NCBI GenBank assembly: GCA_905181595.1 | Contig: CAJIYI010000001.1 | Location: forward strand, 151,938-215,937 | From: an uncultured SAR86 cluster bacterium | Lineage (GTDB): Bacteria > Pseudomonadota > Gammaproteobacteria > Magnimaribacterales > D2472 | Length of the DNA: 64,000 nucleotides | Direction of reading: 5' to 3' | Shown: in pieces, positions 2,532-55,456 of the stretch | Numbering within the stretch: position 1 is the first letter of the stretch | Layout of the letters: the number at the start of each line of letters is the position of its first letter | Position numbers and translations under genes: made by a program | The notes under the pieces: generated by a model | The model's database searches: none | What the model saw: only the letters and a program-made list of their open reading frames with translations | Told to the model about the DNA's origin: nothing

Positions 2532-4521
2532 ATGGGGCATCATAGGTCCTGGATCTATTGCTACTGGATTTGCTCATTCTGTTGAGCATTGTCAGAACTC
2601 TGAATTAACTGGAGTGTTTGGGCGAACAAAAGAAAAAGCCAATGATTTTGCGAAGCTATTTAATATTCAGTCCTTTGCTTCTTTGCAGGATTTTTTATCC
2701 TCCGAAGACATAGATGCGGTTTATGTGGCCACACCTCACAGCGATCATTTTATCTGTGCTTTAGAGGCTATCAAGCATCACAAACACGTTCTTTGTGAAA
2801 AGCCTCTGACCATGAATGCTCATGAAAGTATGATTCTATTGGATCTTGCTCAATCGCTTAAAGTATTTTTGATGGAAGCATATATGTATAGAGCACATCC
2901 TCAAACCTTAAATATTTTGAATCAATTGTCTATATTTAATGAGACAAATGAAAAAATATTAATCGAAGGTTCGTTTGGATTTCAAGCAGAAGTCTCGTCG
3001 GATCATCGTCTAAGAAATCCATTCTTGGGCGGAGGAGCAATATTAGATGTGGGCTGTTACCCCTTGTCCATGTGCAAATTAATTGCTGGGCATCTTCAAG
3101 ATCTGCCTTTTGCTGAGCCTAAAAGTATCACTGCAACAGGCAGATTAGATAAGACCGGAGTAGATCTGCAATCGGATGCTCATCTAGTATTTTCAGATCA
3201 AATTGAAGCAAAAATAAGTTGTGCTATCGATGAGCAACTTCTTAATAGACTAGTTATATCTAGTGGCGACATCTCAATGACTGTGAGTGATCCTTGGCAT
3301 TGTGGGCAGTTCCAGGAAGGTAAATCATCTATTGCTATCAATCATGCATCTGGCTTAGTTGAAGAGATTTCTTTTGTTGATCAGATAGGTCTTTTTACCA
3401 GAGAAATTGAACATGCTTCTAACTGCATTCTCAATCAAAAAATTGAATCAGATGTTATTTCTCATGCAGACACTCAAAGCAATATGTTCTGGCTTGATCA
3501 ATGGAGGCAGCAGATGCAGATTGTTTGCCCTAAAAATTTAATCAAGAATTCTCCAGTGCTAGAGTCTAAGGCTTTTTTAAATCAAACAACTAAACTTGAG
3601 AATGTAAGTTTACCAGGGCTAGATAAATTAGCTTCAAGATTAGCCTTTGGCTGCGACAATCAAACCTCTGAAGTTCATGCCTTCACAATGTTTGATAATT
3701 TTTATGGATCAGGCGGTCGAATTTTTGATACAGCCTACATTTACAACAACGGCATGGGAGACAAGTACCTAGGGCAGTGGATAAATTCTCGCCAATTAGA
3801 AAAAGAGATCATCGTCATTGGTAAAGCAGCCCATACTCCTCAATGCGAGCCCCAGTTTATAAGACCGCAGATACTTGAATCTTTAGAGCGTCTCCAGATT
3901 AAAAAATTAGATATCTTCTGCCTGCATAGAGATAACTCAGAGGTTCCTGTTGCAGAATTTATCGATGCATTAACTGAGATAAAAGAAGAAGGCTTGATTG
4001 ATTTAATTGGCGCATCTAACTGGGAGTTAGATAGATTTTCTGAAGCTCGGGAGTATGCATTCAAAGAAAAAAAAGAGCCATTCAAAGTATTAAGCAATAA
4101 TTTCAGTTTGGCTGAAATGATTGAACCTGTGTGGCCAGGTTGCGTGGGTGTGAATGATGCCTATATGGAATATATCCTCAAAGAGGAAATATTATTATTT
4201 CCATGGTCAAGCCAAGCTAGAGGTTTTTTTATTCAGAAAAAAGAAGTTATGTCTTCGGAGCATTTCTCTAACCCAACTTTAGATGAAGAGATGAGAGTGT
4301 GGCATTATGAAAAAAATTTAAAGCGCCGAGAAAAGTGTTTTGAATTAGCTGCAAATAAAAATGTTCAGCCGATACAAATTGCTCTTGCATATGTTTTGCA
4401 TAAATCTCCTCTAATTTTTCCGCTAGTAGGACCAAGAACAATTTTTGAAACAAACAGTTCCATACAATCTTCGCAAATTACACTAACGGCCCAAGAACTT
4501 CTTGAACTTGCTCAAGACTAA
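2518..4521 (+). CDS. two-domain oxidoreductase: N-terminal Gfo/Idh/MocA dehydrogenase fused to C-terminal aldo/keto reductase
   Basis: Single uninterrupted 667-aa ORF. The N-terminus has KWGIIGPGSIA (Rossmann) and EKPL, as in Gfo/Idh/MocA. From about aa 360 (nt ~3595) the AKR hallmarks appear: FDTAYIYNNG (Asp/Tyr), IGKAAH (Lys) and LHRDN (His). Confidence 0.8.
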   Translation: MQKIKWGIIGPGSIATGFAHSVEHCQNSELTGVFGRTKEKANDFAKLFNIQSFASLQDFLSSEDIDAVYVATPHSDHFICALEAIKHHKHVLCEKPLTMNAHESMILLDLAQSLKVFLMEAYMYRAHPQTLNILNQLSIFNETNEKILIEGSFGFQAEVSSDHRLRNPFLGGGAILDVGCYPLSMCKLIAGHLQDLPFAEPKSITATGRLDKTGVDLQSDAHLVFSDQIEAKISCAIDEQLLNRLVISSGDISMTVSDPWHCGQFQEGKSSIAINHASGLVEEISFVDQIGLFTREIEHASNCILNQKIESDVISHADTQSNMFWLDQWRQQMQIVCPKNLIKNSPVLESKAFLNQTTKLENVSLPGLDKLASRLAFGCDNQTSEVHAFTMFDNFYGSGGRIFDTAYIYNNGMGDKYLGQWINSRQLEKEIIVIGKAAHTPQCEPQFIRPQILESLERLQIKKLDIFCLHRDNSEVPVAEFIDALTEIKEEGLIDLIGASNWELDRFSEAREYAFKEKKEPFKVLSNNFSLAEMIEPVWPGCVGVNDAYMEYILKEEILLFPWSSQARGFFIQKKEVMSSEHFSNPTLDEEMRVWHYEKNLKRREKCFELAANKNVQPIQIALAYVLHKSPLIFPLVGPRTIFETNSSIQSSQITLTAQELLELAQD

Positions 4522-6937
4522 TTGTTTCTGTGAGGTGTATTCGTGTTGCAGAGGATCCAATTAGAATCTCATAGGAACCCTGTCTAATCTTCCAGCACTT
4601 GTCTTCAATGTCCCAGTAAGAGAAATTTCTTTGAGTGAGCCTGATCTCAACAGTTTTTTTATCACCAGCTCCTATCGTCTCTTTTGCAAAGCCTTGAAGG
4701 GTCTTAATTGGCTCAGCATTGTCTGAATTCTCAAAAGCAACATAACACTGTGCAACTTCTGCCCCAATTACATCCCCAATATTTGCAATCATAAATTTAC
4801 AAGATACTTCCTTGCTATCACCCATTTTAATTTCAAGATCACTATATTGAAATTGGGTATAAGAAAGACCATGACCAAATGGGAACAATGGGTCATTAGC
4901 TTTTCTGTCATACCATCTATAGCCAACTAAAAGCTTTTCGTCATAGTTCATCTGCGCATCCTTGCCTGGATAACAATCATAAGCAGGAGTATCTGCAATA
5001 TTTTTTGGAAAAGTAGTAGGCAATCTTCCAGAGGGGTTAACTTCCCCAGTGATAATATCCACCAGAGCATTTCCAAATTCTTGACCAGCAAACCATGTCT
5101 GAATAACAGCATCCGCATTATCAATCCATGTCATTTCAACAGGTGAACCGGTATTAATAACGACTGTGGTATTTTTATTGGCCTCTAAAATTGCTTTAAT
5201 TAAGGAGTCTTGATCAGCAGGTAAACTTAACTCCGCTCTATCATTGCCTTCGGTCTCCCAGTCAGAATTAGTTCCAGCAATCAATATGACCTGATCTGCA
5301 TTACCTGCAATTTCAATTGCTTCTTTAAATAAATCAACCTCATCAGGTGCTTGGCAGCCAATATATACTGCAGGAAAATTTCCTTCAAAATAATACTGCA
5401 CTTCTATGCTGTAGCTTTCGCCTTGTTGCAGATTTAGAACTCCCTTTTTTGAAGCTGAGCTAAATGTGAAAAAAGCCTCCCCTGGCTCTATATCATTCCA
5501 ATTATCAATAAGTTCCTTGCCATCAATTAATAACCGACACTGGCCAATTCCAAATATTTCAAATTCATGATCACCGGAGATCTCCGGTGTATATTTACAA
5601 GAAAACCTAACTGAAATATTAGACCTTTCTTTTTTACCAATCACCTCTTTTGCAAAACCTTCAAAAACCCAAAATTTATTTCCTATTAGATGCTCAGATA
5701 AAATTAAATTTTCTTCAAAGTTCTGCCCATCAAAGTACTCAACTAAAAATCCTTTTTTATCACTTGTAAGCTCCTCATTAATTTTTGGGAGGTATTTATG
5801 GGTATGACATCCTTTCGCATACTCGATTTTTATTTCTCCAGGAAGCCTAGCTTTAAAAGCTTCTAGAGGCTGCACTTGATAATGCGGCATAAGACTTGCA
5901 CTGCCTCCACCTATGATTTGAGCATTTTTTGCATTTGGTCCAATCACTGCTAATTTTTTAATATTCTTTTTAAGCGGTAAAAGTCCTTCATTTTTTAAAA
6001 GCACCATGCCATCTGCAGCAGCTTTTCTTAATAGTTTTCGATGTGATGGCTGATCAATTGCTTCTTCTGGCCTGAATCCGGGTCTTTCAAAACGTTTAGA
6101 GAACTCAGCGACGGTTAGTATTCTTTTAACCTTGTCATCAATAAGCTCTTCATCTACTTTTCCATCTTTGATGGAGTTGATCAAGCTAGCACCCCAGACA
6201 TTTCCTGGACCTGGCATCTCAAGATCAAGACCACCATTAGCATTTTCTTCAGTTTCCAGTGCAGCACCCCAATCACTTACCACATATCCATCAAATCCCC
6301 ATTCTTCTTTTAATATGTCGATCAACAATTCTTGATGTGAGCTGCAATAAATATTATTTAGTTTGTTGTAGGCGCTCATCACAACTTTTGCATTACCTTG
6401 CTTAATGCCCATCTCAAAAGGCAATAAATATATTTCTCGAAGAGTTCTCTCATCAATGTTTGAGCTAATTGCGTGCCTATTAAACTCTGTGTCATTGCCA
6501 ACAAAATGCTTTAAGCAGGCTGCAACATTCTTGGATTGCACTCCATTCACATATTGAACCGCAATTTTGCCACTCAAAAATGGATCTTCAGAAAAGCTCT
6601 CAAAATGTCTACCGCCAAGAGGATGTCTATGAATATTAATAGTTGGCCCAAGCAATACATCCACATCCTTTGCATTTGCCTCTTCTCCCAAGGCCTCTCC
6701 AAGTTGATTAATTAATTCCAGATCCCATGTCGAACCTATTGAAATAGCACAAGGGAAACAGGCAGAAGATTTCCCAGAATTTGAATCACCTCTGATTCCA
6801 TTTGGACCATCTGACATCTTAATGCTTGGAACATTTGCATGGTCAATCTTATTTGTGTACCAAGAATTAAACCCACTAAGCAGCGAGACTTTTTCCTCTA
6901 AAGTAAGCTGGGAAACTATTTGATCTATATCTGTCAT
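4478..6937 (-). CDS. GH3 beta-glucosidase with an internal PA14-like domain, no signal peptide
   Basis: 819 aa with GH3 motifs LKHFVGND and the VVSDWGA nucleophile. A PA14-like insert (FLVEYFDGQNF...IEVQYYFEG, about nt 5385-5757) sits between the GH3 domains. The N-terminus MTDIDQIVSQLTLEEK is not a signal peptide. Confidence 0.9.
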   Translation of the reverse strand: MTDIDQIVSQLTLEEKVSLLSGFNSWYTNKIDHANVPSIKMSDGPNGIRGDSNSGKSSACFPCAISIGSTWDLELINQLGEALGEEANAKDVDVLLGPTINIHRHPLGGRHFESFSEDPFLSGKIAVQYVNGVQSKNVAACLKHFVGNDTEFNRHAISSNIDERTLREIYLLPFEMGIKQGNAKVVMSAYNKLNNIYCSSHQELLIDILKEEWGFDGYVVSDWGAALETEENANGGLDLEMPGPGNVWGASLINSIKDGKVDEELIDDKVKRILTVAEFSKRFERPGFRPEEAIDQPSHRKLLRKAAADGMVLLKNEGLLPLKKNIKKLAVIGPNAKNAQIIGGGSASLMPHYQVQPLEAFKARLPGEIKIEYAKGCHTHKYLPKINEELTSDKKGFLVEYFDGQNFEENLILSEHLIGNKFWVFEGFAKEVIGKKERSNISVRFSCKYTPEISGDHEFEIFGIGQCRLLIDGKELIDNWNDIEPGEAFFTFSSASKKGVLNLQQGESYSIEVQYYFEGNFPAVYIGCQAPDEVDLFKEAIEIAGNADQVILIAGTNSDWETEGNDRAELSLPADQDSLIKAILEANKNTTVVINTGSPVEMTWIDNADAVIQTWFAGQEFGNALVDIITGEVNPSGRLPTTFPKNIADTPAYDCYPGKDAQMNYDEKLLVGYRWYDRKANDPLFPFGHGLSYTQFQYSDLEIKMGDSKEVSCKFMIANIGDVIGAEVAQCYVAFENSDNAEPIKTLQGFAKETIGAGDKKTVEIRLTQRNFSYWDIEDKCWKIRQGSYEILIGSSATRIHLTETISLEQVQEVLGPLV

Positions 6938-12584: not shown

Positions 12585-13067
12585 ATGAAAATAGCAATCT
12601 ACCCTGGTTCTTTTGATCCCATTACTTTTGGCCACATAGACATTACTGAGAGAGCCTGTGCACTGTTTGACAAAGTCATAGTCAGTGTCGCTGAGAGCAA
12701 GTCTAAAAACCCGCTTTTTAGCGTTGCTGAAAGAATTGATTTGGCACAAGAGATTTTTAAAGATAATCCAAAGATTGAGGTCATAGGTTATGCCAGCAAG
12801 CTAACCGTTGATCTTGCAAGAGAGAATAATGCTATAGCTATTATCAGAGGGTTAAGGGCCGTTGCAGACTTTGAATATGAATTTCAGCTTGCAACTATGA
12901 ATCGCAGTCTTGCCCCAGATATTGAGAGCATTTTCTTTACTCCCAAGGACACTCTGATATATGTCTCCTCTAGTTTAGTCAAAGAAATTGCTAAACTTGG
13001 TGGAGATGTATCTCGCTTCGTTAGCCCGAATGTCAAAGATGCGCTTGCGGAGAAATACTCAACTTAA
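12585..13067 (+). CDS. coaD: phosphopantetheine adenylyltransferase
   Basis: MKIAIYPGSFDPITFGHIDI (nucleotidyltransferase H-x-G-H motif), about 160 aa. ATG 12585 is preferred over the TTG at 12582. Confidence 0.9.
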   Translation: MKIAIYPGSFDPITFGHIDITERACALFDKVIVSVAESKSKNPLFSVAERIDLAQEIFKDNPKIEVIGYASKLTVDLARENNAIAIIRGLRAVADFEYEFQLATMNRSLAPDIESIFFTPKDTLIYVSSSLVKEIAKLGGDVSRFVSPNVKDALAEKYST

Positions 13068-13876
13068 CTCTGGCATTTGCTGCAAAAGAAAGAAGCTCGC
13101 TGGGTCTGAACTATTCTTTGAATGATGCCTGCTTTACATCTTACGCATTCTTGACCTTCACGATCATAAGCAGATAATTCAATCTTAAAGTAACCTTGAT
13201 TGCCATCTGGTTGATAGAAATCTTTCAGCGTTGTCCCTCCAACTTCAATGGCTCTTCGAAGAATTTTTTTTGCTGACACTGCAATGTCTAAAGATTGTTT
13301 CTTGGTAATTAATTTGGATCGTTTGGTGGGGCGAATCCCAACATCAAATAGAATTTCATTGGCGTAGATGTTACCAATGCCAACCACATGGGATTGATTC
13401 ATTAGCGAGATCTTAATTGGAGAGTTAACTTTTCGCAGCCTTTTAAACAAGTACTCGCCATCAAAGTCTTCTGACAATGGTTCTGGTCCGAGTTTATCGA
13501 GTAAAAAATGATGCTGAGGGTCTGATACAAAGTGCAGCGATCCAAATCTTCGGGGATCATTATAGATGAGCTTGGCATCTTGAAAAATGAACTCAACATG
13601 ATCATGTTTTTTATAAAAGTTAGATTCTTTTTCAGCTATTCGAACTGTTCCAGTCATCCCAAGATGAAGCAATATTTGAGAGTCTTTAACATGAAATAGA
13701 ATATATTTTGCCCTTCGGCTTATTTGATCAACTGTTACGCCCTTAAGATTTTTAAATGCTTCTAGATCTACTGGCCATCTAAGATTTGGGTTGTGAATTT
13801 CTACAGATTCAAGAATCTGATTCTGAAATGTCTGTATTGCTCGAACCGAGGTTTCTACCTCAGGTAATTCTGGCAT
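13064..13876 (-). CDS. mutM: formamidopyrimidine-DNA glycosylase
   Basis: N-terminal MPELPEVET, an H2TH region and a C-terminal zinc finger CVRC...CSKC. 270 aa. Confidence 0.92.
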   Translation of the reverse strand: MPELPEVETSVRAIQTFQNQILESVEIHNPNLRWPVDLEAFKNLKGVTVDQISRRAKYILFHVKDSQILLHLGMTGTVRIAEKESNFYKKHDHVEFIFQDAKLIYNDPRRFGSLHFVSDPQHHFLLDKLGPEPLSEDFDGEYLFKRLRKVNSPIKISLMNQSHVVGIGNIYANEILFDVGIRPTKRSKLITKKQSLDIAVSAKKILRRAIEVGGTTLKDFYQPDGNQGYFKIELSAYDREGQECVRCKAGIIQRIVQTQRASFFCSKCQS

Positions 13877-15207
13877 TAACCGAGTAAGCTATTGATCTCT
13901 ATAAGATTTTCTGGACTCAGGGTACCAGCAGCAAGATGCAAGCGCAGGGTAGTGATCAGGTAGTCATACTTAGCATTGGCTAGATTTCTTTCAGCGCTGT
14001 ACAGATTTTTTTCAGCTTGCAACAGATCGACAATATTTCTTGTGCCGACTTCATAACCAACTCTAGTAGCTTCCAGGGCACTGGATGCAGATACCACAGC
14101 TTGCTTTTGAGCTCTAAGATTTGCTACCAATGTCACAACATTAGAATACTGACTTCGCACATCCTGTATAACGCTTCTCTCAGCAAACAGAGCATCTTCT
14201 GATGATTTGTTTGATTCAGCATAAGCTTGCTTGGTTCTTGAGATCACAGCTCCACCTTGAAAGATAGGCATGGAGAGTTGAAGGCTGTAAGTGTCTCTCT
14301 GAGTTTCATCAGGCACGGTAATATTAAAAGCACCACCAGTATTCAGGCCATCATATGCATATTGATTAGTTTCTGATTCAGTTTGCGCACCAACAATATC
14401 AACTTTAGGTAAATGATTTGAAGCAACACTGCGAGCATTGTTTTTTGATGCATATTTTCTTAAATTAGCTGCTTTTAACCTAAAGTTATTTTCCACCGCT
14501 TTTCTTGCCCACTCCTCTTTAGAGGCTGGCACTGGATTGGTAACACTCAGGTCATTCACTAGTCCATCAAGAGATAAAATTTCCTTCCCAACAAGTGCAT
14601 TTAAGGCTTCCTGAGCTGTGAATACAGTCCCTTCAATCCTAATTCTTGAGGCCATGCTCAGATCAAATGCTAATTGAGCTTCTTGAACTTCGGTAACCGC
14701 AGAAAGACCTACCTCATAGCGTTGGCTGCTTTGATCTAACTGTTTCTTGATTGCTTTCTCTTCTGATCGCGCTGCATTTAAGTTATCGATAGCTCTTAGA
14801 ACATTGAAATAGAGCTCAGCAGTTCTAACAATTAATGCCTGTTGAGAGTATGCAAAATCTGCTTCAGCTGCATCTGTTAAAAATTTTGATTGACGATATT
14901 TAAACCAGCTATCTAGCCTTAGGAGTGGCTGAGTGAGCCGGGCAGAAGTATTAAAGTTATTGTATTGATTTTGAAGGTTTCCATTTTGATAGTATTCATT
15001 CCAATTAGTCTGAGCATTTAGGGTAATGCTTGGCAAAAGAGCTGCTCGTCCCTGTACTTTAATTTCCTTTCCAGATAAATAAGAATATTCCGCAGACTTG
15101 TATTGAGGATCATTCTCCAAGGCATCATTGTAAATATCTAATAGGCTATCAGCGAACGCAGAGATACTAAAGAAAGCAGCGAGTGTAATTAAAAATTTTG
15201 ATTTCAT
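13876..15207 (-). CDS. tolC: TolC-family outer-membrane efflux channel
   Basis: 443 aa. Signal peptide MKSKFLITLAAFFSISAFA followed by the TolC start LLDIYNDALENDPQY and two internal repeats. Confidence 0.85.
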   Translation of the reverse strand: MKSKFLITLAAFFSISAFADSLLDIYNDALENDPQYKSAEYSYLSGKEIKVQGRAALLPSITLNAQTNWNEYYQNGNLQNQYNNFNTSARLTQPLLRLDSWFKYRQSKFLTDAAEADFAYSQQALIVRTAELYFNVLRAIDNLNAARSEEKAIKKQLDQSSQRYEVGLSAVTEVQEAQLAFDLSMASRIRIEGTVFTAQEALNALVGKEILSLDGLVNDLSVTNPVPASKEEWARKAVENNFRLKAANLRKYASKNNARSVASNHLPKVDIVGAQTESETNQYAYDGLNTGGAFNITVPDETQRDTYSLQLSMPIFQGGAVISRTKQAYAESNKSSEDALFAERSVIQDVRSQYSNVVTLVANLRAQKQAVVSASSALEATRVGYEVGTRNIVDLLQAEKNLYSAERNLANAKYDYLITTLRLHLAAGTLSPENLIEINSLLG

Positions 15208-15218
15208 AATATATCTGA

Positions 15219-15237
15219 ATGTTTACAGTGTTAACAT
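15219..15237. promoter_or_regulatory. 19-bp palindromic operator-like site (third copy of the tetR/efflux operator)
   Basis: ATGTTTACAGTGTTAACAT matches ATGTTGACACTGTTAACAT (51328-51346) at 17 of 19 positions. One difference is the asymmetric centre base. It lies 12 nt upstream of the tolC ATG. Confidence 0.5.
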
Positions 15238-15265
15238 TAAACCTCTTAAGGGGTAGCTATGTCAA
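15236..15265 (-). promoter_or_regulatory. candidate sigma70 promoter of tolC
   Basis: Minus strand reads TTGACA (15265-15260), an 18-nt spacer, then TTTAAT (15241-15236). The -10 overlaps the operator-like palindrome by 2 nt. Confidence 0.4.
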
Positions 15266-15388
15266 TGAGAGTATTTTAATACATTGCTAAAAAATCTCCT
15301 AAATTAATACATTTGTTTGTATTTAGTTAGAGTAGAATATGACGTAAAAGTTCATCAAGCTTTAGCGAAACATTTACAGGAAAGTTAA

Positions 15389-17278
15389 TTGGCAAAAGAT
15401 TACGACTCCCAATCGATAGAGGTTCTATCTGGCCTCGATCCGGTGCGAAAAAGACCGGGCATGTACACAGACACAACATCTCCAAATCATCTTATTCAAG
15501 AGGTAGTTGATAATTCTATAGACGAAGCTTTGGCAGGGCATTGTTCAAGTATCAAGGTTACTTTGGCTAAAGACGGCATCATATCGGTGGGCGATGATGG
15601 TCGTGGTATGCCAACTGACATTCATCCAGAGCATAAAGTTTCTGGTGTTGAATTGATCATGTGCAAACTTCATGCTGGCGCCAAATTCTCAGGCGAAGAC
15701 TACAATTTTTCTGGAGGCTTGCATGGTGTTGGCGTTTCAGTAGTGAATGCGTTATCTCAAAAATTATTGGTAGAAATTAAACGTTCTGGGAAGCAATTTG
15801 AGATGGCTTTTGAAGGCGGCGACAAAAAGTCTGAGCTCACGGAGGTTGGAGAGGTTGGAGCCAGAAATTCTGGAACGATCATAAACTTTCAACCGGATCC
15901 ACAATACTTTGAAACTGTAACTGTTAATACAGATAGCCTTAAACATCTCTTAAAAGCTAAGGCTGTTTTATGCCCCGGTCTAACCATTCAATATGCCGAT
16001 GAGAAAAAACAAGAAAAAATTTCTTGGACTTATGAGAATGGATTAATTTCCTATCTATCTGAATCTTCTGAAGGCATCGATTTACTTTTAGAAGAATCAA
16101 TATCTTGCAGCAAACTTGCAAAAGATAATGCGCTTGATTTTGTTTTGAACTGGTCTACTCAACCGGTAAAAAATCTGATGAGCGAATCATATGTGAATTT
16201 AATTCCAACTGCCCAAGGAGGCTCTCACTTAAATGGTTTTAAGGCTGGGTTATTGGATGCAGTTAAGGAGTTCTGTGAGTTTAGGAATCTAATCCCTAAG
16301 GGATTAAAAATTACTGCTGATGATGTTATTCAGCACAGCACTTTTATTGTTTCATCTAAGCTAACCAATCCTCAATTTGCTGGCCAAACTAAGGAGAGAC
16401 TCGATTCTAAAGATCATCAAGGCTTTGTGAGCTCTACCACCAAAGATGTTCTTAGTATTTGGTTCAACCAGCATACCGAAGAAGGAGAGAAGCTCGCAGA
16501 ATTGGCCATTGCTTCTGCACAAGCCCGGACAAGAGAAACAAAAGTTGTGGACAGGAAAAAGACTTTTCAGGGCCCAGCGTTACCGGGTAAATTATCTGAC
16601 TGCAACAGCACAAATCTTGATGAGACAGAATTATTTTTTGTGGAAGGAGATTCTGCTGGAGGATCTGCGAAGCAATCTAGAGAGAGAAAATTTCAGGCAA
16701 TCATGCCCTTAAGAGGAAAAATCCTTAATACCTGGGATCTTGAGAGCAGTGAAATTATTAAATCCATTGAAATTAAAGACATCTCAACTGCAATAGGAGT
16801 TAATCCGGGCAGCCCTGATATCTCTTCATTAAGATATGGAAAAGTTTGCATTTTAGCTGATGCTGACTCTGATGGTCTGCACATCGCCACCTTGCTTTGT
16901 GCGCTTTTTTTGAGGCATTACAAGCCATTAGTTCTTGCAGGTCATATTTATGTGGCCATGCCTCCACTGTTTCGAATTGATTGTGCTAAAGAAGTTTTTT
17001 ATGCGCTTGATGAAGAAGAAAAAGATTCAATTGTTAAGAAGCTAAAATCAAAACCAGGAAAACCAAAAATTGATATTCAGCGATTCAAAGGTTTGGGTGA
17101 GATGAACCCATCACAACTTAGGGAGACAGTCATGGATCCAAAAACAAGAAGGCTAGTGCAGCTAACAGTCACAGCATCTGATAATGTAAATAGCATGATG
17201 GATTTACTGCTATCAAAAAAGAATGCTGGCGCTCGAAAAGAGTGGCTTGAAAAACGAGGAAAAATTGTCTCAGTTTAA
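15389..17278 (+). CDS. parE: DNA topoisomerase IV subunit B
   Basis: TTG start preceded by AGGAAAG. Type IIA B-subunit motifs [24 protein letters not shown] and PLRGKILN. At 629 aa it lacks the GyrB-specific insert and sits directly upstream of parC. Confidence 0.9.
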
Positions 17279-17280
17279 TC

Positions 17281-19539
17281 ATGGAAACAAATAAAAATAT
17301 TACTTCAATAAGTCTTAAAGAATATGCAGAAGAGTCATATTTAAATTATGCAATGTATGTCATCTTGGACAGGGCTTTGCCTCATGTGGGTGATGGCATG
17401 AAGCCAGTTCAGAGAAGAATCCTATATGCCATGAGCGAACTGGGCTTAAATGCTGGCTCTAAATATAAGAAATCTGCAAGAACCGTAGGAGACGTGATTG
17501 GTAAGTTCCACCCTCATGGAGATAGCGCGGCATATGAAGCGATGGTTCTGATGGCGCAGAATTTTTCTTTTAGATATCCTCTTGTAGATGGCCAGGGTAA
17601 CTGGGGCACCCAAGATGATCCCAAGTCATTTGCTGCAATGAGATACACCGAATCTAAACTTACTGGATTTGCAGATCTACTTTTATCAGAGCTCAAATTA
17701 GGAACAGTAGACTGGCAGCCTAATTTTGATGGTTCATTGCTTGAGCCAATAATTTTGCCTGCGAAGATTCCAAGTATATTGCTGAATGGAACCACTGGTA
17801 TTGCTGTTGGCATGGCCACTGATATTCCTTCCCATAATATTAGAGAAGTCTTGGATGCATGCATACACATGCTAGACAATCCCAAGGCCAGTACCAAAGA
17901 CCTCATGAAGTTCATCAAAGGTCCAGATTTTAGTAATAATGCTCCGCTTATTGCCTCACAAGAAGAGTTATTAGAGATGTATGAAACAGGTAAGGGTGGT
18001 TTCAAAATTAGAGCTCAATGGCTAACAGAGGGAAATGATATAGTTATAAATGCTTTGCCTCATCAGGCATCCGGCTCAAAAATTCTTGAACAAATTGCAG
18101 ATCAAATGCAAAAGAAAAAAATACCCATGGTGGTTGATTTAAGGGATGAAGGCGACCACAAGGAACCGGTTCGACTGGTGGTTACCTTAAAATCTAACAG
18201 AGTAGATGCAGGCGAAGTTATGAATCATCTTTACGCAACCACTGACCTTCAAAAAAACTATCGCGCTAATATAAACCTTATTAGCCTGAAGGGTTCTCCA
18301 AGAGTATTTGCTCTGAACGACCTCATATATGAATGGCTAACATTTAGACAGCAAACTGTTTTACGTAAATTAGAGCATCGCCTAGATCAGGTTGATGACC
18401 GTATTCATATCCTTGAAGGATTGCTAATTGTTTATCTCGACCTTGATAAAGTGATTCACATTATTAGAAATAGTGATGAACCTAAGAAAGAGCTGATGAA
18501 AGCTTTTAAAATTTCAGAAATTCAAACCAATGCAATTTTAGAAATTAGGCTTCGGCAGCTAGCTAAGCTTGAGCAAATAAAGCTTGAAGAAGAGAAGGGG
18601 CATCTAGAATTGGAGAGAGCAGAGTTAGAAAAAATTATTAAATCAAAGGCTAGGCTCAAAACTTATATCAAGACAGAGTTAAAAGAAATTAAAGATAATT
18701 TTGGTGATGACAGGAATTCTCCAATTGAGTCACTATCTGAGGCAAAAGCCTTCTCAGAAGAGGAAATGGTAACTTCAGAATCCGTAACTATAGTTTTATC
18801 TAAAGGTGGCTGGATAAGATCTGCAAAGGGTCATGACTTAGATCCTAGCACTCTAACTTTTCGAGGTGATGATAGTCTGCAGCATTTTGCAAAAGGAAAA
18901 AATAATCAATCGGCTATTTTCTTTGATTCTGGTGGGAAAGCATTTTCTCTTGCTGCTCATTCACTGCCATCTGCTCGAGGGATGGGAGAGCCTTTAACAG
19001 GCAGGGTCTCTTCGGAATCAGGTGTAACTTTTATGGGTGCCGCCATTGGAGCAGAGTCCTCTAAAATCTTAATTGCCAATTCTGCTGGCTATGGATTTGT
19101 AAGTGAATTATCAAATGCACTCTCCAATCAAAAAAAAGGTAAAGCTTTTATGAAATTACCAGAGAAGGCAGAGTTATTGCCTCCCTTGCCACTTGAAGAT
19201 TCGCATCGTCATGTCGTTGCAATTTCTTCAATTGGTCGGATGTTAATTTTTGATATAGCTGAGCTTCCGGTACTACCAAAAGGGAAGGGAAATAAAATTA
19301 TAAATATTCCAAAACCAAAATTATTGGCTGGCGAAGAATCAATGAATTTTATTTGCCTGTTGTCTGATTCAAGCACACTCCAGATTCACAGCGGCAAACG
19401 CTTTATGTCTCTCAAACTCAAGGATTTAGAGAATTATATTTCCACTCGAGCAAAAAGAGGGATGATGTTACCTCAGGGTTATAGAAAAGTTGATCAAGTG
19501 CTTGAAATTACTACTGAGGACGAAGCTGCCCCTGAATAA
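17281..19539 (+). CDS. parC: DNA topoisomerase IV subunit A
   Basis: 752 aa with the active-site region [10 protein letters not shown] and GKFHPHGD. It starts 2 nt after the parE stop. Confidence 0.9.
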
Positions 19540-49833: not shown

Positions 49834-50298
49834 ATGCCAAAAGAACAATTTTTAATTGCTATGAGATTTTTAGCATCATCTGTCAGCGTTGTTTCAGCCA
49901 AAGACTCTAGTGGCAAACTTTATGCCATGACTGCCTCTTCTGTGACTTCATTAACAATTGACCCACCAGCCATACTGGTGTGTGTGAATAAAGGTGCAAG
50001 CATTCATGATGTCTTATTGCCGGGAGTTGATCTGTGCATTAATATTCTTAGCAAAGAGCAACAAGATATCTCAAACCTGTGTAGCTCGAAAGATTCTGAG
50101 TCATTAAGGTATGCGAATGATTACTGGAATACAGATGAAACTCCATTTCTAAAAGATGCTCAGTCTAATATTTTCAGTCAAGTAGATGAGGTCATTAATT
50201 ACAACTCCCATTCAATTGTTATTGCAAAAGTTTTGGCGGCTCAAAGTGCAGACTCATTTAATGGCTTAATATATGCAGACGGAGGATATTTATCTTGA
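49834..50298 (+). CDS. flavin reductase-like (FMN-binding split-barrel) protein
   Basis: 154 aa. The pattern SSVSVVSAKDSSGKLYAMTASSVTSLTIDPPAILVCVNK is typical of flavin reductase domain proteins. Confidence 0.7.
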   Translation: MPKEQFLIAMRFLASSVSVVSAKDSSGKLYAMTASSVTSLTIDPPAILVCVNKGASIHDVLLPGVDLCINILSKEQQDISNLCSSKDSESLRYANDYWNTDETPFLKDAQSNIFSQVDEVINYNSHSIVIAKVLAAQSADSFNGLIYADGGYLS

Positions 50299-50708
50299 TT
50301 CGATTATTACTTTCATTCTCATTGTTTTTTGCTAATGGATTAATTGCTCTTGAATACAGCAAAGGAGCTCCAGCAGCAGAAGTGTATTTTATTACACCGA
50401 AAAATGACGACATTGTTTCGGGCGAAGTTGTTGTCAAATTCGGTCTTCAAAATTTTGGTGTTTCTCCAGCAGGATTAAATGTTAATGGAACCGGCCATCA
50501 CCACTTAATCATTGATGCTGATTTACCAAACTTGGCTCAACCCATCCAAGCAGATAAAAATCATGTGCATTTTGGAAAAGGTCAAACAGAAGTCAAGTTA
50601 GAGCTTGAGCCTGGTTCTCACACTTTGCAACTTCTGCTAGGAGATTATCGGCATATTCCGCACAGCCCACCGATCTACTCAAACAAAATTACCATTGTTG
50701 TGAAATAG
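50295..50708 (+). CDS. secreted DUF4399-like protein
   Basis: TTG start overlapping the upstream TGA. Signal peptide present. The GTGHHHLIIDA motif is recalled as a DUF4399 hallmark. 137 aa. Confidence 0.6.
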   Translation: MIRLLLSFSLFFANGLIALEYSKGAPAAEVYFITPKNDDIVSGEVVVKFGLQNFGVSPAGLNVNGTGHHHLIIDADLPNLAQPIQADKNHVHFGKGQTEVKLELEPGSHTLQLLLGDYRHIPHSPPIYSNKITIVVK

Positions 50709-50713
50709 ATTTC

Positions 50714-51313
50714 TTAGAATTCAAGCGCTGAAATTAAAAAACTTCTAAGATCGCTTTTAACTAACCCCATGGCATTTCCAGCTTTTGTATCAATTTCTGA
50801 CTCAGCGAGAGAATCATTTCTTAGCAAGCCAACCAAGCCGTGCACCAGCGCCCAATAATGAATACATTTTATGTCTAAGTCTTTTGCTGATATGCCAGGA
50901 TTTAATTCAGCCAATACACAAACCAATTCCTCAAAAGCACCAACGGCACTGTTTAATAACTCTGGGAATTGAGTTTTATCAATTACTGGACTGTGCATCA
51001 AATCATAGGTATTTCTTTTTGATAACCCAAACTCAATGTAGGTTTGCCCCATTTCTAAAAACCTATCTCTTGTGGACAATGTTTTTTTCGCGTTAGCATT
51101 TTGTAAAATTTCTTTTAATTCCGTAAATCCCCGTGTAGATACTTCAGCCAATAAAGATTCTTTGGTTTTAAAATGTCTGTAGGGAGCGGTTTGGGATACC
51201 TTAGCTTCCTTTGCAATTGATCTAAGGCTCATACGATCATGACCATCAGCCTCGCATACAATGCAAGCGCTTGAAATAAGCTCTTCTTTTAGGTTTCCAT
51301 GATGATATTTCAC
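50714..51313 (-). CDS. TetR/AcrR-family transcriptional repressor
   Basis: GTG start 51313 preceded by AGGA. N-terminal HTH is MSLRSIAKEAKVSQTAPYRHFKTKESLL. 199 aa. Divergent from the MFP-RND genes. Confidence 0.85.
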   Translation of the reverse strand: MKYHHGNLKEELISSACIVCEADGHDRMSLRSIAKEAKVSQTAPYRHFKTKESLLAEVSTRGFTELKEILQNANAKKTLSTRDRFLEMGQTYIEFGLSKRNTYDLMHSPVIDKTQFPELLNSAVGAFEELVCVLAELNPGISAKDLDIKCIHYWALVHGLVGLLRNDSLAESEIDTKAGNAMGLVKSDLRSFLISALEF

Positions 51314-51327
51314 TTTTTATTCATCCT

Positions 51328-51373
51328 ATGTTGACACTGTTAACATGTTTATGTATGTTGACACTGATAACAT
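51328..51373. promoter_or_regulatory. two tandem 19-bp palindromic operators (candidate TetR binding sites)
   Basis: ATGTTGACACTGTTAACAT (51328-51346) and ATGTTGACACTGATAACAT (51355-51373), 18/19 identical and 27 bp apart start to start. Arm consensus is ATGTTnACA. Confidence 0.6.
51331..51359 (+). promoter_or_regulatory. candidate sigma70 promoter of the MFP-RND operon
   Basis: -35 TTGACA (51331-51336, inside operator 1), a 17-nt spacer, then -10 TATGTT (51354-51359, overlapping operator 2). Confidence 0.45.
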
Positions 51374-51402
51374 TAAATAATTTTTCTGCTTTAGTCAAAC
51401 TT

Positions 51403-52398
51403 ATGAAAAAAATAGTATTCACCATAGCTCTTTCTATTTACCTGCCTTTATTATCAGGTGAGAGCTCATCGCTAGAGATTACGACTATCGAGATGCAAGA
51501 CTCCTACCAATCTTTGAAAAGATTTCCAGGCAAGATTCTTCCCCTAAATTATTCCAAACTATCTTTTGAGATTCCTGGAAAAATATCACAGGTCACAGTT
51601 GATATTGGCGATGCTGTTGAAGTTGATCAAATCTTAGCCTTTTTGGATCCAGCTGAAATGCAAGCAAATCTAAATCAGGCCTCAGCCAGATATAATTTAG
51701 CCTCACAAGCTTTGACTAGATTTCAGGACTTAAAAGATAAAGGTTTTATTTCTAATCAAGAGTTAGATAAAGCCAACTCAGAATATTTAGTGGCCAAGGC
51801 ACAAGCTGATCTTTACAGAGTCAAATTAGAACAGACAAAAATACGTGCTCCTTTCTCAGGATTCATTCAAAATAGATTTCTAGATTCAGGCACAGTAGTC
51901 AGCCCTGGTATTCCAATTATAGAGATTATTGACTCCACAAGTGTTGAGGCGCATGTGTCTATTCCGGGCAGCATTATTGAGAGCCTTGAGATTGGCAGTC
52001 AATATAATTTTGCTATCAATGAGAAGATGTATCCCGCCACCTTGAAGCGTTTTTCTCAGATGACTAGCCAAGGCTCTAATAATAGACTGTGCATCTTTGA
52101 GTTTGAAACATTTATCAATCCTGGCTCTGTTTCTTATTTGGAGCTGCAGCAGACCAGGAGGAAGGAAGGTGCTTGGATTCCATTAAAAGCTTTATCACAG
52201 GGCACCCAGGGCTTATGGAATTTATTCACAGTGACCAAAGATGTCAATGGCCAATATGTGGTTGCTAAGCAAATTGTTGAAATGATTCACATAGAAAGAA
52301 ATGCTGCCTATGTTAATGGCACGATTGCTAATGGCGATATGGTAGCTTCAGGTGGTGCTGCTAAAGTTATTGATAGCGAAATTCTAAGAGCCCAATAA
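51403..52398 (+). CDS. RND efflux periplasmic adaptor (membrane fusion protein)
   Basis: Start at ATG 51403 (MKKIVFTIALSIYLPLL signal/anchor). HlyD-like lipoyl, coiled-coil and beta-barrel pattern. The ORF-track ATG 51328 lies inside the operator. Confidence 0.85.
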   Translation: MKKIVFTIALSIYLPLLSGESSSLEITTIEMQDSYQSLKRFPGKILPLNYSKLSFEIPGKISQVTVDIGDAVEVDQILAFLDPAEMQANLNQASARYNLASQALTRFQDLKDKGFISNQELDKANSEYLVAKAQADLYRVKLEQTKIRAPFSGFIQNRFLDSGTVVSPGIPIIEIIDSTSVEAHVSIPGSIIESLEIGSQYNFAINEKMYPATLKRFSQMTSQGSNNRLCIFEFETFINPGSVSYLELQQTRRKEGAWIPLKALSQGTQGLWNLFTVTKDVNGQYVVAKQIVEMIHIERNAAYVNGTIANGDMVASGGAAKVIDSEILRAQ

Positions 52399-52402
52399 GC
52401 AC

Positions 52403-55400
52403 ATGTTTTTCTTGAGAGTTCTTTTTGATAGGCCGAGAATATTTGCTCTGTTGTTGGCATTTATTTTTTTATCTGGAATTTTTTCCTTAAATACTATTTC
52501 TAGGCAAGAGAATCCTGAGCTTGCTGAGAGGTGGGCGAGTATCCAAACTGTATATCCAGGAGCTTCTCCTAACAGAATAGAGACGCAAGTTTTAGAGCCC
52601 TTAGAAGCAAAGTTAAGAGAGGTTTATGAATTAGATGAAATCAGATCTTTTTCTCAGCAGGGTTTTGCCACTACTGTTATGGCAATCAAAGATGAAGTTG
52701 CAGCAGGCCCTCTCATTGAGCAGGTTTGGTCCCAAGTTCAGGATAAATTAGATCAATCAAGCTTTCTTCTGCCACCAGGAATCGAGCCTCAGCTTCAAAG
52801 AAGTAGCGGCCCTCCAACGACGTTGCTCTATGCCTTAACCTGGAATGGAAGGGGGGATGTGCCACTCATCTTGCTATCCAGAGTCGCTGAAGATTTGCGT
52901 CAGTCCCTTGCATTCATGGGAGGCTCAGATAGAAGTTTTGTTTTTGGTGGCGCTGATGAGGAGGTGTTGGTAGAAATAGACAATTCTAAGCTTTCAGCCC
53001 TAGGGCTGGGTTTTCAGGAAATTGCACAAATACTATCATCCTTGGATTCTAAGAAGCCTATTGGGCAGATTTCTCAGGGCGGACAAGAGGTTCTAGTTAA
53101 GTCCAAAGAAAATCTTACAAGTTTAGATCAAGTTTCTGGCCTGCCTATTAAAGTCATTAACGAGTTTGAGATTATTCGTTTGGGAGATATCGCCACGATT
53201 TCAAAAAATCCACGCAATCCCCCGGAAGAGCTCACCTTATATCAAGGCAAGCCAGCAGTCTTGGTTGAAATTAGAGGTGCTTTTAATCAAAGAGTAGATT
53301 CTTATGTTAATAGTATTTCTAATGTGGTTGAGAGCTTTAAATCTGAATTGCCTCCAGAAATTACCATTGATACAGTCTACGACGAATCCTACTATTTCAA
53401 AGAAAAATTCAATAACTTATATTCAAGCATTATCTTTGCAACCCTCATTGTTGTTGCAATTAGCTATTTTTTACTTGGTTTCAAGTCCGCCTTGATTGTT
53501 GGTTCTGTAATACCTTTAACAATTTTTTTAGTTTTACTTGGGTGCAAATTGTTAGATCTACCGTTGCATCAAACCTCCATGACTGGAATTATTATTGCGC
53601 TAGGGCTGTTAATCGATAATGCAATTATTGTTGTCGAAGATTATAAATATAGGCGACGCTTGGGGCATGATTTACAAGAGGCTGCCTTTGAAAGTGTGCA
53701 TCATCTATGGGTGCCATTGGCAGCTGCAACGGCAACCACTGCTCTAGCATTTTTTCCTATTGCTACCGGCGCCGGCCCTAGTGCTGAGTTTGTTGGTGGA
53801 ATGGCTAAGACTGTTATTTTATCGATCACATCATCACTTTTTCTTGCTTTATTTGTTGTTCCCATTCTTCTTACTTACATGGAGAAAATTAAATTTTTTG
53901 ATCAGGAGCGATATTCTGGAACTGGGTATTCCAATGCAAAGCTCTTGCAGAGATACAAGGATCTATTAACTTGGTCCTATGCCGTTCCAAGACGAGCCAT
54001 CATGATCTCTCTGGCTCTGCCATTGTTGGGATTTCTTATGTTCCCCTTTTTAAAAGCTGATTTTTTCCCTGAGCTTGATAGAAACATGTTCAAGGTATTC
54101 ATTGAGCTTCCACAAAATTCCAATGTCAGAACCACAGAAAAAAGAGTTAAAGAAATCAGGAAGTCCATTGCTCAAAGTGAAATAGCTGGGGACGATTTCT
54201 GGTTTATTGGAAGAAAACTGCCTAGAATTTTGTACAATGTGATAGGCGGTGATTCTGGTTTGGGAAGCAATAATATAGCTCAAGGTGTTTATTTTGCTCC
54301 ATCCTACAAGGAGATGAAGGCTTCATTGCCAGGCCTTGCAAGACGGCTCAATCAAGAGAATCCAGATTTAAAAATTATCATAGATAAGTTTACCTCCGGA
54401 CCACCGGTGGACGCTGCAGTTGAATTTAGTATCGATGGACCTGATATTGCTATTCTCAAAATCCTTGGAAAAAAACTAGAATTAATTTTTCGAGAGTCGC
54501 CAGATGTATATTTAACTGACAGCGGGCTGTCCTCAAACTCAAAGAATCTTGTGTTTAACTTCGATGAATCCGCCCTCATGCTGAACTCTGTTCCAGGCGA
54601 GTATTTTACTAATGAGCTTGCGATCGCTAGTCAGGGCTTTGAAGTAGGAACAATGCTGGATGGAAATAAAGAGCTACCAATAAAGATTAGAGGGATGTCA
54701 GATGATTTCATGGAATCGATTCAGTTTCTTTCAAGGCCCTCACAGGATGGCTTTGATTACTCTTCGAGTTATGGAGAGTTTGAGGTTACGAATCAATCTA
54801 ATTTGATAGCAAGAGATGCTGGCAAGAGAGAAAATAGTGTGTCAGCTTGGATTTGGCCTGGGCTCCTGCCATCAGATACAGAGAAATTTATTGCAGCAAA
54901 AATTGAAAAATTTAAAGCCGAGCTACCACCTGGCTATATTCTGGAGGCTGGGGGTGAGGCTGATGCAAGAGGTCAGTCACAAGCAAATATTTTCTCATCA
55001 GCTATTCTATTTTTTGTGCTTATTGTTATTGCATTAGTTGCAGCGCTGAATTCATTTAGGCAGGCAGGGTTAATTTTAAGCGTTGGAATATGGTGTACCG
55101 GCCTAGCATTTATGGGTTTGACCCTCGGGCAAGCAAATTTTGGTTTTATTGGGTTGGTGGGTGCTATCGGCTTAACAGGACTATCAATCAATGATTCGAT
55201 TGTTGTTCTATCTCATATTAAAGAATCCAATGCGAATTCTCCAATCACCAAAGAGACTCTGGTGGATGTTGTCATACGCTCCACCCGTCACGTCATTACC
55301 ACTTCTGCAACTACGATTGGAGGTTTCTTGCCTCTGCTTTTAACTAGTGTATTTTTTCAACCTTTGGCTTGGGCAATGGCGGGTGGAATTATTGGCTCGG

Positions 55401-55456
55401 CTATCATTGCACTATTTTATATCCCTGCCTGTTATGCTATTTCCAAAAAATTATAA
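52403..55456 (+). CDS. RND (AcrB/AcrD/AcrF superfamily) inner-membrane efflux transporter
   Basis: 1017 aa with 12-TM topology and two large periplasmic loops. Conserved TM4-type segment GLLIDNAIIVVE. Confidence 0.9.
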   Translation: MFFLRVLFDRPRIFALLLAFIFLSGIFSLNTISRQENPELAERWASIQTVYPGASPNRIETQVLEPLEAKLREVYELDEIRSFSQQGFATTVMAIKDEVAAGPLIEQVWSQVQDKLDQSSFLLPPGIEPQLQRSSGPPTTLLYALTWNGRGDVPLILLSRVAEDLRQSLAFMGGSDRSFVFGGADEEVLVEIDNSKLSALGLGFQEIAQILSSLDSKKPIGQISQGGQEVLVKSKENLTSLDQVSGLPIKVINEFEIIRLGDIATISKNPRNPPEELTLYQGKPAVLVEIRGAFNQRVDSYVNSISNVVESFKSELPPEITIDTVYDESYYFKEKFNNLYSSIIFATLIVVAISYFLLGFKSALIVGSVIPLTIFLVLLGCKLLDLPLHQTSMTGIIIALGLLIDNAIIVVEDYKYRRRLGHDLQEAAFESVHHLWVPLAAATATTALAFFPIATGAGPSAEFVGGMAKTVILSITSSLFLALFVVPILLTYMEKIKFFDQERYSGTGYSNAKLLQRYKDLLTWSYAVPRRAIMISLALPLLGFLMFPFLKADFFPELDRNMFKVFIELPQNSNVRTTEKRVKEIRKSIAQSEIAGDDFWFIGRKLPRILYNVIGGDSGLGSNNIAQGVYFAPSYKEMKASLPGLARRLNQENPDLKIIIDKFTSGPPVDAAVEFSIDGPDIAILKILGKKLELIFRESPDVYLTDSGLSSNSKNLVFNFDESALMLNSVPGEYFTNELAIASQGFEVGTMLDGNKELPIKIRGMSDDFMESIQFLSRPSQDGFDYSSSYGEFEVTNQSNLIARDAGKRENSVSAWIWPGLLPSDTEKFIAAKIEKFKAELPPGYILEAGGEADARGQSQANIFSSAILFFVLIVIALVAALNSFRQAGLILSVGIWCTGLAFMGLTLGQANFGFIGLVGAIGLTGLSINDSIVVLSHIKESNANSPITKETLVDVVIRSTRHVITTSATTIGGFLPLLLTSVFFQPLAWAMAGGIIGSAIIALFYIPACYAISKKL

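Follow-up and report, generated by a model that had tools for sequence, protein, structure and literature searches.

Two nearly identical palindromes fill much of the short spacer between a TetR-family regulator gene and a divergent efflux operon in the genome of an uncultured SAR86 cluster bacterium. Does the adjacent regulator bind them, which promoters would it control from there, and does its reach extend beyond this locus? SAR86 bacteria, with their streamlined genomes, rank among the most abundant surface-ocean heterotrophs, and our literature search on SAR86 efflux and TetR regulators found only the 2011 genome paper, which names a macrolide efflux system. With almost no literature found on transcriptional control in this lineage, the locus offers a well-supported cis-regulatory model that experiments can test, in a marine group that is uncultured and abundant worldwide. 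A TetR-family gene that diverges from its neighbor by less than 200 bp usually controls that neighbor (PMC3511530; Ahn et al., 2012), and here the spacer is 89 bp long, the neighbor is divergent and two 19-bp palindromes are present. We analyzed the 64-kb stretch of DNA that contains the locus (64,000 nt, 38% GC; hereafter the window), starting from an earlier note made from its letters and open reading frames. Features are listed in Table 1.

A TetR-family regulator gene diverges from an RND pump operon

The regulator carries a TetR_N domain (PF00440, 37.2 bits against a cutoff of 24, residues 13-58) and, in its C-terminal part, a TetR_C_33 domain (PF13305, 31.9 bits against a cutoff of 26.8). 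In profile comparison it aligns over its full length to the solved TFR 3ON2 (E = 4e-22), which together with 3CJD is its nearest solved relative; both are uncharacterized structural-genomics entries. The N-terminus MKYHHGNL and the helix-turn-helix (HTH) SLRSIAKEA.VSQTAPYRHF are invariant or nearly so in orthologs down to 67% identity. The invariance of MKYHHGNL, along with an ATG at the same position in ortholog locus L001, confirms the GTG at 51313 on the minus strand as the start of tetR. The gene frame proposed earlier, with this GTG on one side of the spacer and the ATG at 51403 on the other, was right. TetR orthologs in species-representative genomes come overwhelmingly from the SAR86 cluster.

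On the other side of the spacer, the RND periplasmic adaptor (MFP) scores 148 bits against TIGR01730 (cutoff 94.9). The nearest solved structures to the RND permease that follows are MexK (332 bits, residues 13-1013) and the 6vej RND transporter, which we take to be TriC. No outer-membrane (OEP) gene was found downstream of the permease in the open reading frame list of the window or by Pfam. A secreted DUF4399 gene (50295-50708, plus strand) converges on tetR with a 5-nt gap, a layout retained in most SAR86 loci (L001-L052), and a functional link between its product and the pump is possible.

Table 1. Genes, putative operators and predicted promoters of the window
Feature	Coordinates	Strand	Description	Support
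tolC	13876..15207	-	Outer-membrane channel, 443 aa, ATG at 15207	TIGR01844, PF02321
Putative third operator	15219..15237		ATGTTTACAGTGTTAACAT; 11 nt upstream of tolC start; 8/9 symmetric pairs	2 mismatches, 28.3 bits
Predicted tolC promoter (tentative)	15236..15265	-	TTGACA 15265-15260, 18 nt, TTTAAT 15241-15236; overlaps operator edge	Direct read
tetR	50714..51313	-	Regulator, 199 aa, TetR_N + TetR_C_33/WHG, GTG start	Pfam
Putative operator O1	51328..51346		ATGTTGACACTGTTAACAT; tetR-proximal; holds predicted pump -35	28.2 bits; 57/59 orthologous control regions
Predicted pump promoter	51331..51359	+	TTGACA 51331-51336, 17 nt, TATGTT 51354-51359	Promoter scan 10/12
Putative operator O2	51355..51373		ATGTTGACACTGATAACAT; pump-proximal; covers predicted pump -10/+1 and edge of predicted tetR -10	26.1 bits
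Predicted tetR promoter	51370..51398	-	TTGACT 51398-51393, 17 nt, TAATGT 51375-51370	Direct read
MFP	51403..52398	+	RND periplasmic adaptor, 331 aa	TIGR01730, HlyD_3, HlyD_D23
RND permease	52403..55456	+	1017 aa	ACR_tran, 1.9e-107

Two near-identical palindromes occupy the spacer

Read directly, the spacer (51314-51402) has the form tttttattcatcct-ATGTTGACACTGTTAACAT-gtttatgt-ATGTTGACACTGATAACAT-taaataatttttctgctttagtcaaactt. The two palindromes, here called O1 and O2, are identical at 18/19 positions, their starts lie 27 bp apart and every coordinate that the earlier note had assigned to them is exact. In a repeat search, the direct repeat gains one base, for 20 nt in all (TATGTT..., 51327-51346 and 51354-51373, 95%). 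Both are imperfect 9+1+9 palindromes around a central base, with 8/9 symmetric pairs in O1 and 7/9 in O2; this symmetry was established by hand and by a reverse-strand match, and an automated inverted-repeat search gave no pair. The ATG at 51328, at the first base of O1, had been set aside as an artifact of the open reading frame finder rather than the MFP start. It is one, the frame ending within 33 codons in 55 of 57 orthologous regions.

The pattern is rare. With up to three mismatches allowed, it has five matches in the 64-kb window, which fall at three places; the expectation from 100 dinucleotide shuffles is 0.02, and none of the shuffles gave five matches. A position weight matrix trained solely on orthologous loci, with the window left out, returned exactly three window sites at 26-28 bits, with the next best at 10.4 and a top score of 19.2 across 50 shuffles. 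On the strength of sequence comparison, O1 and O2 are almost certainly binding sites of the adjacent TetR repressor.

The palindromes overlap predicted divergent promoters and are conserved

Alignment of TetR orthologs retrieved 80 loci, and the control regions of the window and of L001-L058 were compared (n = 59; 52 distinct regions). Of the 59, 57 carry two tandem sites of the form ATGTTnACA-N-TGTnAACAT directly ahead of tetR, with TetR identity down to about 40%. More sites occur at loci with remoter TetR relatives from other phyla, and the divergent MFP-RND synteny with tetR is kept in L001-L060.

A promoter scan places a promoter for the pump across O1 and the left edge of O2, under a model that presumes E. 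coli-like sigma-70 rules in an uncultured host with 38% GC. Among the 52 distinct regions, TTGACA is present in the tetR-proximal site in all 52 and in the other site in 8 (which mostly reads TTTACA or TTTACG). An invariant TTGACA in the first site and not in the second is the pattern expected of a first site that has to work as operator and -35 at once. A -10-like hexamer follows TTGACA after 16-18 nt, at or overlapping the left edge of the second site, in every spacing class (TATGTT at 27 bp, TAATGT at 28, TATCAT at 29 and TATACT at 31). The rightward promoter of the earlier note, TTGACA-17-TATGTT, is thereby upheld, and pump transcription would start near 51366, inside O2.

The leftward promoter proposed for tetR, TTGACT-17-TAATGT, fared less uniformly. 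Its sequence is as described, and the scan is silent on it because its -10, TAATGT, fits TATAAT at only 3/6 positions. The TA that completes TAATGT follows the second site in 45/52 regions and the first site in 17/52, and GTCAA lies exactly 20 nt past the second site in 27/52. This conserved -35 is missing from the clade with 31-bp spacing (21/52 regions), so that the architecture of the tetR promoter differs between clades; the promoter as predicted here is conserved in the clade of the window and not in all clades. The operators would lie over both predicted divergent promoters, the one for the pump supported by the scan and the one for tetR by conservation. Transcription of tetR would begin near 51363, inside O2, and O1 would then fall in its leader. 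A mirror-image tetR promoter (-35 TTATCA in O2, -10 CATGTT at the edge of O1) matched at 4/6 and 3/6 positions, had no conservation in its favor and was rejected.

The starts of the two sites are 27, 28, 29, 31 or 32 bp apart in the 52 distinct regions, which argues against a fixed helical phase and for independent dimers, and the predicted promoter geometry accounts for this spacing. Phylogenetic footprinting thus backs the regulatory reading of the earlier note in all its elements, within the clade limits given above for tetR.

Two further observations concern these loci. One of them, L006 (NZDA01000050.1), was deposited as 'Methanobacteriota archaeon' and holds a SAR86-type tetR/MFP-RND locus with both operators and a TetR identity of 69%; mis-binning of a bacterial contig is the probable explanation. 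Another palindrome, ATGCTTACAGAGTAAACAT, which is conserved but weaker (2-3 mismatches), recurs downstream of tetR and, in loci with a DUF4399 gene, past that gene (L017-L021 and L030, about 3914-4034; L029, L031 and L049, about 3512). It may be a further target site or conserved coding sequence.

A third copy of the palindrome precedes an unlinked tolC gene

The third site found by the weight matrix, and its highest score in the window, lies about 36 kb from O1 and O2, just upstream of a gene whose product scores 300 bits against TIGR01844 (cutoff 225) and also matches PF02321. This TolC is likely the third component of the pump. A TolC homolog search gave only relatives with at least 88% identity. 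In six of these loci (L081-L086; TolC 88-90% identity, picked by protein homology), TTGACA-18-T[TC]TAAT and the palindrome, 12 nt before the ATG, are kept, and most of the remaining tolC spacer has diverged. Deeper evidence comes from loci selected by the motif itself and is subject to ascertainment bias; in such metagenome loci, the same site stands ahead of TolC proteins only 66-69% identical.

The tolC promoter is assigned tentatively, from the sequence. TTGACA-18-TTTAAT drew no call from the scan and its -10 has no A at position 2. The scan instead proposed TTAACA-17-TATTAT, ending at the ATG; we prefer the conserved TTGACA-18-T[TC]TAAT because transcription from the alternative would begin inside tolC. 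On this evidence, the gene for the outer-membrane channel appears to belong to the same regulon as the pump.

The genomic setting of tolC varies. In SAR92/Porticoccaceae (L048, L051, L053 and L055; about 3350-4850), a TolC homolog (35-40% identity) directly follows the orthologous tetR in the same orientation, across a gap of 250-460 nt in which no operator motif was found; TolC is thus physically linked to the switch in that group and remote from it in SAR86. In the window, tolC adjoins mutM and is divergent from parE-parC (13064-19539). This tolC-parE-parC neighborhood is similar to the one in E. coli and agrees with a gammaproteobacterial origin. No recognizable Shine-Dalgarno sequence lies between operator and start for either tolC (15208-15218) or MFP (51376-51402), and translation initiation here may rely on AT-rich unstructured leaders.

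The palindrome accompanies a TetR_C_33 subfamily

Frequent occurrence of the motif regardless of gene context had been named in the earlier note as evidence that would speak against an operator. The motif is not common in this way. The three sites of the window, the 64 kb of this genome that the scan covered, all lie at promoters of efflux genes, and a scan of metagenome contigs with ATGTTKACANTGTWAACAT, using the motif only, gave at least 120 loci; 84 of the 120 matches listed (70%) fall in five gene classes. Among those 120, 47 adjoin a TetR-family gene (9 of them also an MFP gene), 17 lie upstream of small secreted proteins of 90-96 aa, part of which have a PAN domain, 11 upstream of a 368-aa AurF-like ferritin-like gene and 9 upstream of tolC, with 36 in none of these contexts.

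The 47 listed TetR genes selected in this way lie on contigs of 31-71% GC, and most have a YHHGxL start and an A-x-Y-(R/K)-H-F recognition helix. Of eight such proteins tested, seven match TetR_C_33, six of them above the cutoff. The regulator of the window, with MKYHHGNL and QTAPYRHF, carries the same YHHGxL / A-x-Y-R-H-F signature, which marks a TetR_C_33 subfamily defined in this analysis and not a curated family. Loci found through TetR peptides carry the motif and loci found through the motif carry TetR, so that the link between motif and regulator is seen in both search directions. These sequences suggest that the palindrome is an operator code shared across the whole subfamily and not a SAR86 peculiarity. 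A literature search for the operator string and for operators of PF13305/TetR_C_33/WHG regulators found nothing relevant. A candidate code for this large, uncharacterized subfamily could serve target prediction and the design of biosensors from metagenomic sequence alone.

The association also bears on whether another protein, be it a global factor or a TetR paralog with its gene elsewhere, might bind the palindromes, with the adjacent TetR reading something else. The motif does occur at promoters that have no TetR gene nearby (within 900 bp), namely those of tolC and of the AurF-like and PAN-like genes, and some sites, such as the remote ones, may be served by a TetR paralog that shares the reading head. 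Nevertheless, motif and TetR subfamily co-occur in both search directions across phyla and GC contents, the HTH is nearly invariant where the sites are conserved, and a 9+1+9 palindrome suits one TetR-type dimer, as at tetO, where the palindrome is the site of one TetR dimer. We consider binding by another regulator unlikely.

A model for joint repression of the pump, tetR and tolC

We hold it highly probable that O1, O2 and the tolC site are operators of a homodimer of the adjacent TetR_C_33 regulator, which would repress the pump, tetR and tolC. In this model, one dimer would sit on each of O1 and O2 when inducer is absent. The dimer on O1 would mask the -35 TTGACA of the rightward MFP-RND promoter, and the dimer on O2 would mask the -10 and the start of the pump promoter as well as those of the leftward tetR promoter, with O1 in the tetR leader acting as a possible roadblock. 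Both transcription units would be repressed and tetR would be autoregulated. The divergent promoters are predicted to overlap face to face, so that RNA polymerase could occupy only one at a time. A third dimer over the -10/+1 of tolC would bring the outer-membrane channel into the same regulon. The inducer would be a small molecule, probably a hydrophobic substrate of the pump, that binds the C-terminal domain and makes the repressor leave all three sites, upon which the complete tripartite pump would be made. Protein binding, start sites, the repressive sign, the independent (non-cooperative) action of the dimers and the inducer are all elements that we infer from sequence.

The repressive sign could differ at some sites if the regulator were an activator or had a dual role, as MexL does at phz promoters. 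MexL, the regulator of the nearest characterized pump (MexJK), reportedly represses mexJ and activates phz genes depending on the position of its site (PMC11865548). In the cases examined here, however, the sites overlap the -35, -10 or +1 or lie 4-50 nt from the start codon, which are positions of repression, and the regulator is not a MexL ortholog, its match to 8WRF covering only the HTH (E = 2.5e-4). Activation strikes us as very unlikely.

An even less probable alternative is that the repeats work through nucleic-acid structure (a leader hairpin, an attenuator or a cruciform, for example) and are not protein sites. Compared with shuffled sequence, folding of the spacer is somewhat more favorable (plus strand, z = -1.8; minus strand, z = -2.8), but these scores are modest and, with no Rfam family in 51000-51700 even at a permissive threshold, an RNA element was rejected. 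Changes in the half-sites are uncompensated, 5-8 of 9 symmetric pairs being kept, so that bases and not pairings are conserved. A palindrome with a 1-nt center is unable to form a full hairpin, the predicted starts inside O2 would leave neither transcript with both arms, and tolC has a single copy of the motif. As for a repeat without regulatory function, arisen by chance or through recent local copying of a promoter segment, O1 and O2 are direct repeats 27 bp apart with TTGACA in each, but with 0.02 chance matches expected, the pair kept in dozens of species from several phyla between variable flanks, and an independent copy at tolC, sequence conservation effectively refutes it. Repression by the adjacent TetR_C_33 dimer remains our preferred reading.

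Comparison with known systems

A TetR repressor with two operators over divergent promoters has been textbook material since Tn10. The tetO operator is 19 bp long with a central base pair, and its two copies lie about 30 bp apart between centers, against 27-32 bp in the SAR86 set. Like tetR/tetA of Tn10, the SAR86 locus has divergent repressor and exporter genes with two tandem palindromic operators in a short spacer. In Tn10, the tandem TetR operators O1 and O2 are accompanied by overlapping divergent promoters, and the autoregulation and pump repression of that system are predicted here as well (PMC4788846). Unlike in Tn10, where the target is an MFS antiporter, the target in SAR86 is a tripartite RND pump (MFP and RND), the ligand domain of the regulator is of the TetR_C_33 (WHG) type and a remote third putative operator lies at tolC. 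Against the NCBIfam TetR equivalog model, the regulator scores 21.6 bits (cutoff 265; E = 1.6e-4), which places the SAR86 repressor, by sequence, outside the TetR(A-H) protein family though its layout is Tn10-like. We regard the element as real and, as far as its sequence tells, like tetO1/O2 of Tn10 in kind; what would be new is the candidate tolC operator, a possible small dispersed SAR86 regulon and a putative subfamily-wide code.

The closest parallel in gene content is MexL-MexJK of Pseudomonas aeruginosa, with a divergent TetR-family repressor and a two-gene MFP-RND operon that has no outer-membrane gene. The channel is separately encoded in both, MexJK using OprM/OpmH (PMC11865548). The reported MexL motif, TGTAATTT / AAATTACA (PMC11865548), is unlike the ATGTTGACA-N-TGTnAACAT of SAR86. 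The MexK-like pump had suggested orthology to MexL, which was rejected: 8wrf_A matches residues 10-60 only (E = 2.5e-4) and the motif is different. In SAR86 the channel gene tolC itself carries a putative operator, and control of oprM or opmH by MexL was not found in a non-exhaustive literature search.

SimR of Streptomyces antibioticus has two operators, OR and OX, in the divergent simR/simX spacer, and both single and double occupancy have been seen (PMC3241653). The SAR86 locus likewise has two putative operators between divergent regulator and exporter genes. Unlike the SAR86 pump, SimX belongs to the MFS exporters and carries out an antibiotic that its host itself makes; nothing here hints at an antibiotic gene cluster. 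SimR contacts the minor groove with an N-terminal arm, whereas the SAR86 regulator has only 8 residues (MKYHHGNL) before helix 1 and no SimR-like arm.

As in AcrR-AcrAB-TolC of Escherichia coli, a local TetR-family repressor gene is divergent from an MFP-RND operon and tolC lies elsewhere, near parE/parC. The AcrR operator is a single 24-bp palindrome, and the main regulators of tolC in E. coli are MarA/SoxS/Rob, not AcrR. Unlike its E. coli counterpart, SAR86 tolC carries the putative operator of the local efflux repressor. If this repressor reaches the unlinked tolC, induction would raise the three pump components jointly, unlike in E. coli.

Candidate regulon members beyond the pump

Two of the gene classes found by the motif scan raise the possibility of a wider regulon. 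The 368-aa AurF-like (PF11583) ferritin-like gene is highly conserved and has the palindrome 4-23 nt upstream, just past a TATAAT-like box (L089, L108, L117, L136, L141, L154, L164, L186, L187 and L196 from the motif scan; L207-L213 selected by homology); NCBI records label its product 'SAR86 cluster bacterium'. Among four lineages picked by protein homology, the site occurs in two and is absent from the other two. The gene was therefore rejected as a universal member and is at most a variable member of the regulon. The small secreted proteins of 90-96 aa have one site, or two in tandem 38-43 bp apart, 31-49 nt upstream (L104, L110, L132, L138, L146, L153, L155, L158, L160, L161, L175, L178, L180, L181 and L203). 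One group of them has a PAN/Apple domain (PF00024), on low-GC marine contigs labeled Gammaproteobacteria. These proteins may be further regulon members.

Taken one step further, one TetR_C_33 repressor might run a dispersed SAR86 regulon, with the palindrome as the portable code of the YHHGxL / A-x-Y-R-H-F subfamily in many phyla. Depending on lineage, that regulon may comprise the MFP-RND pump, TolC, the AurF-like di-iron enzyme and PAN-domain secreted proteins. We put this joint reading forward tentatively, as a possibility more than an expectation. If true, it would point to a conserved SAR86 response to a hydrophobic or xenobiotic signal, and regulons could be read directly from metagenomes.

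In 38 listed loci within L090-L204, from soil, lake, gut and marine samples, an operator adjoins a TetR gene that has no MFP gene beside it. These TetR_C_33 genes are divergent from unrelated genes. On sequence inspection, three of the neighbors look flavodoxin-like or NAD(P)H-reductase-like and NmrA-like, and one has an ABA4-like Pfam match.
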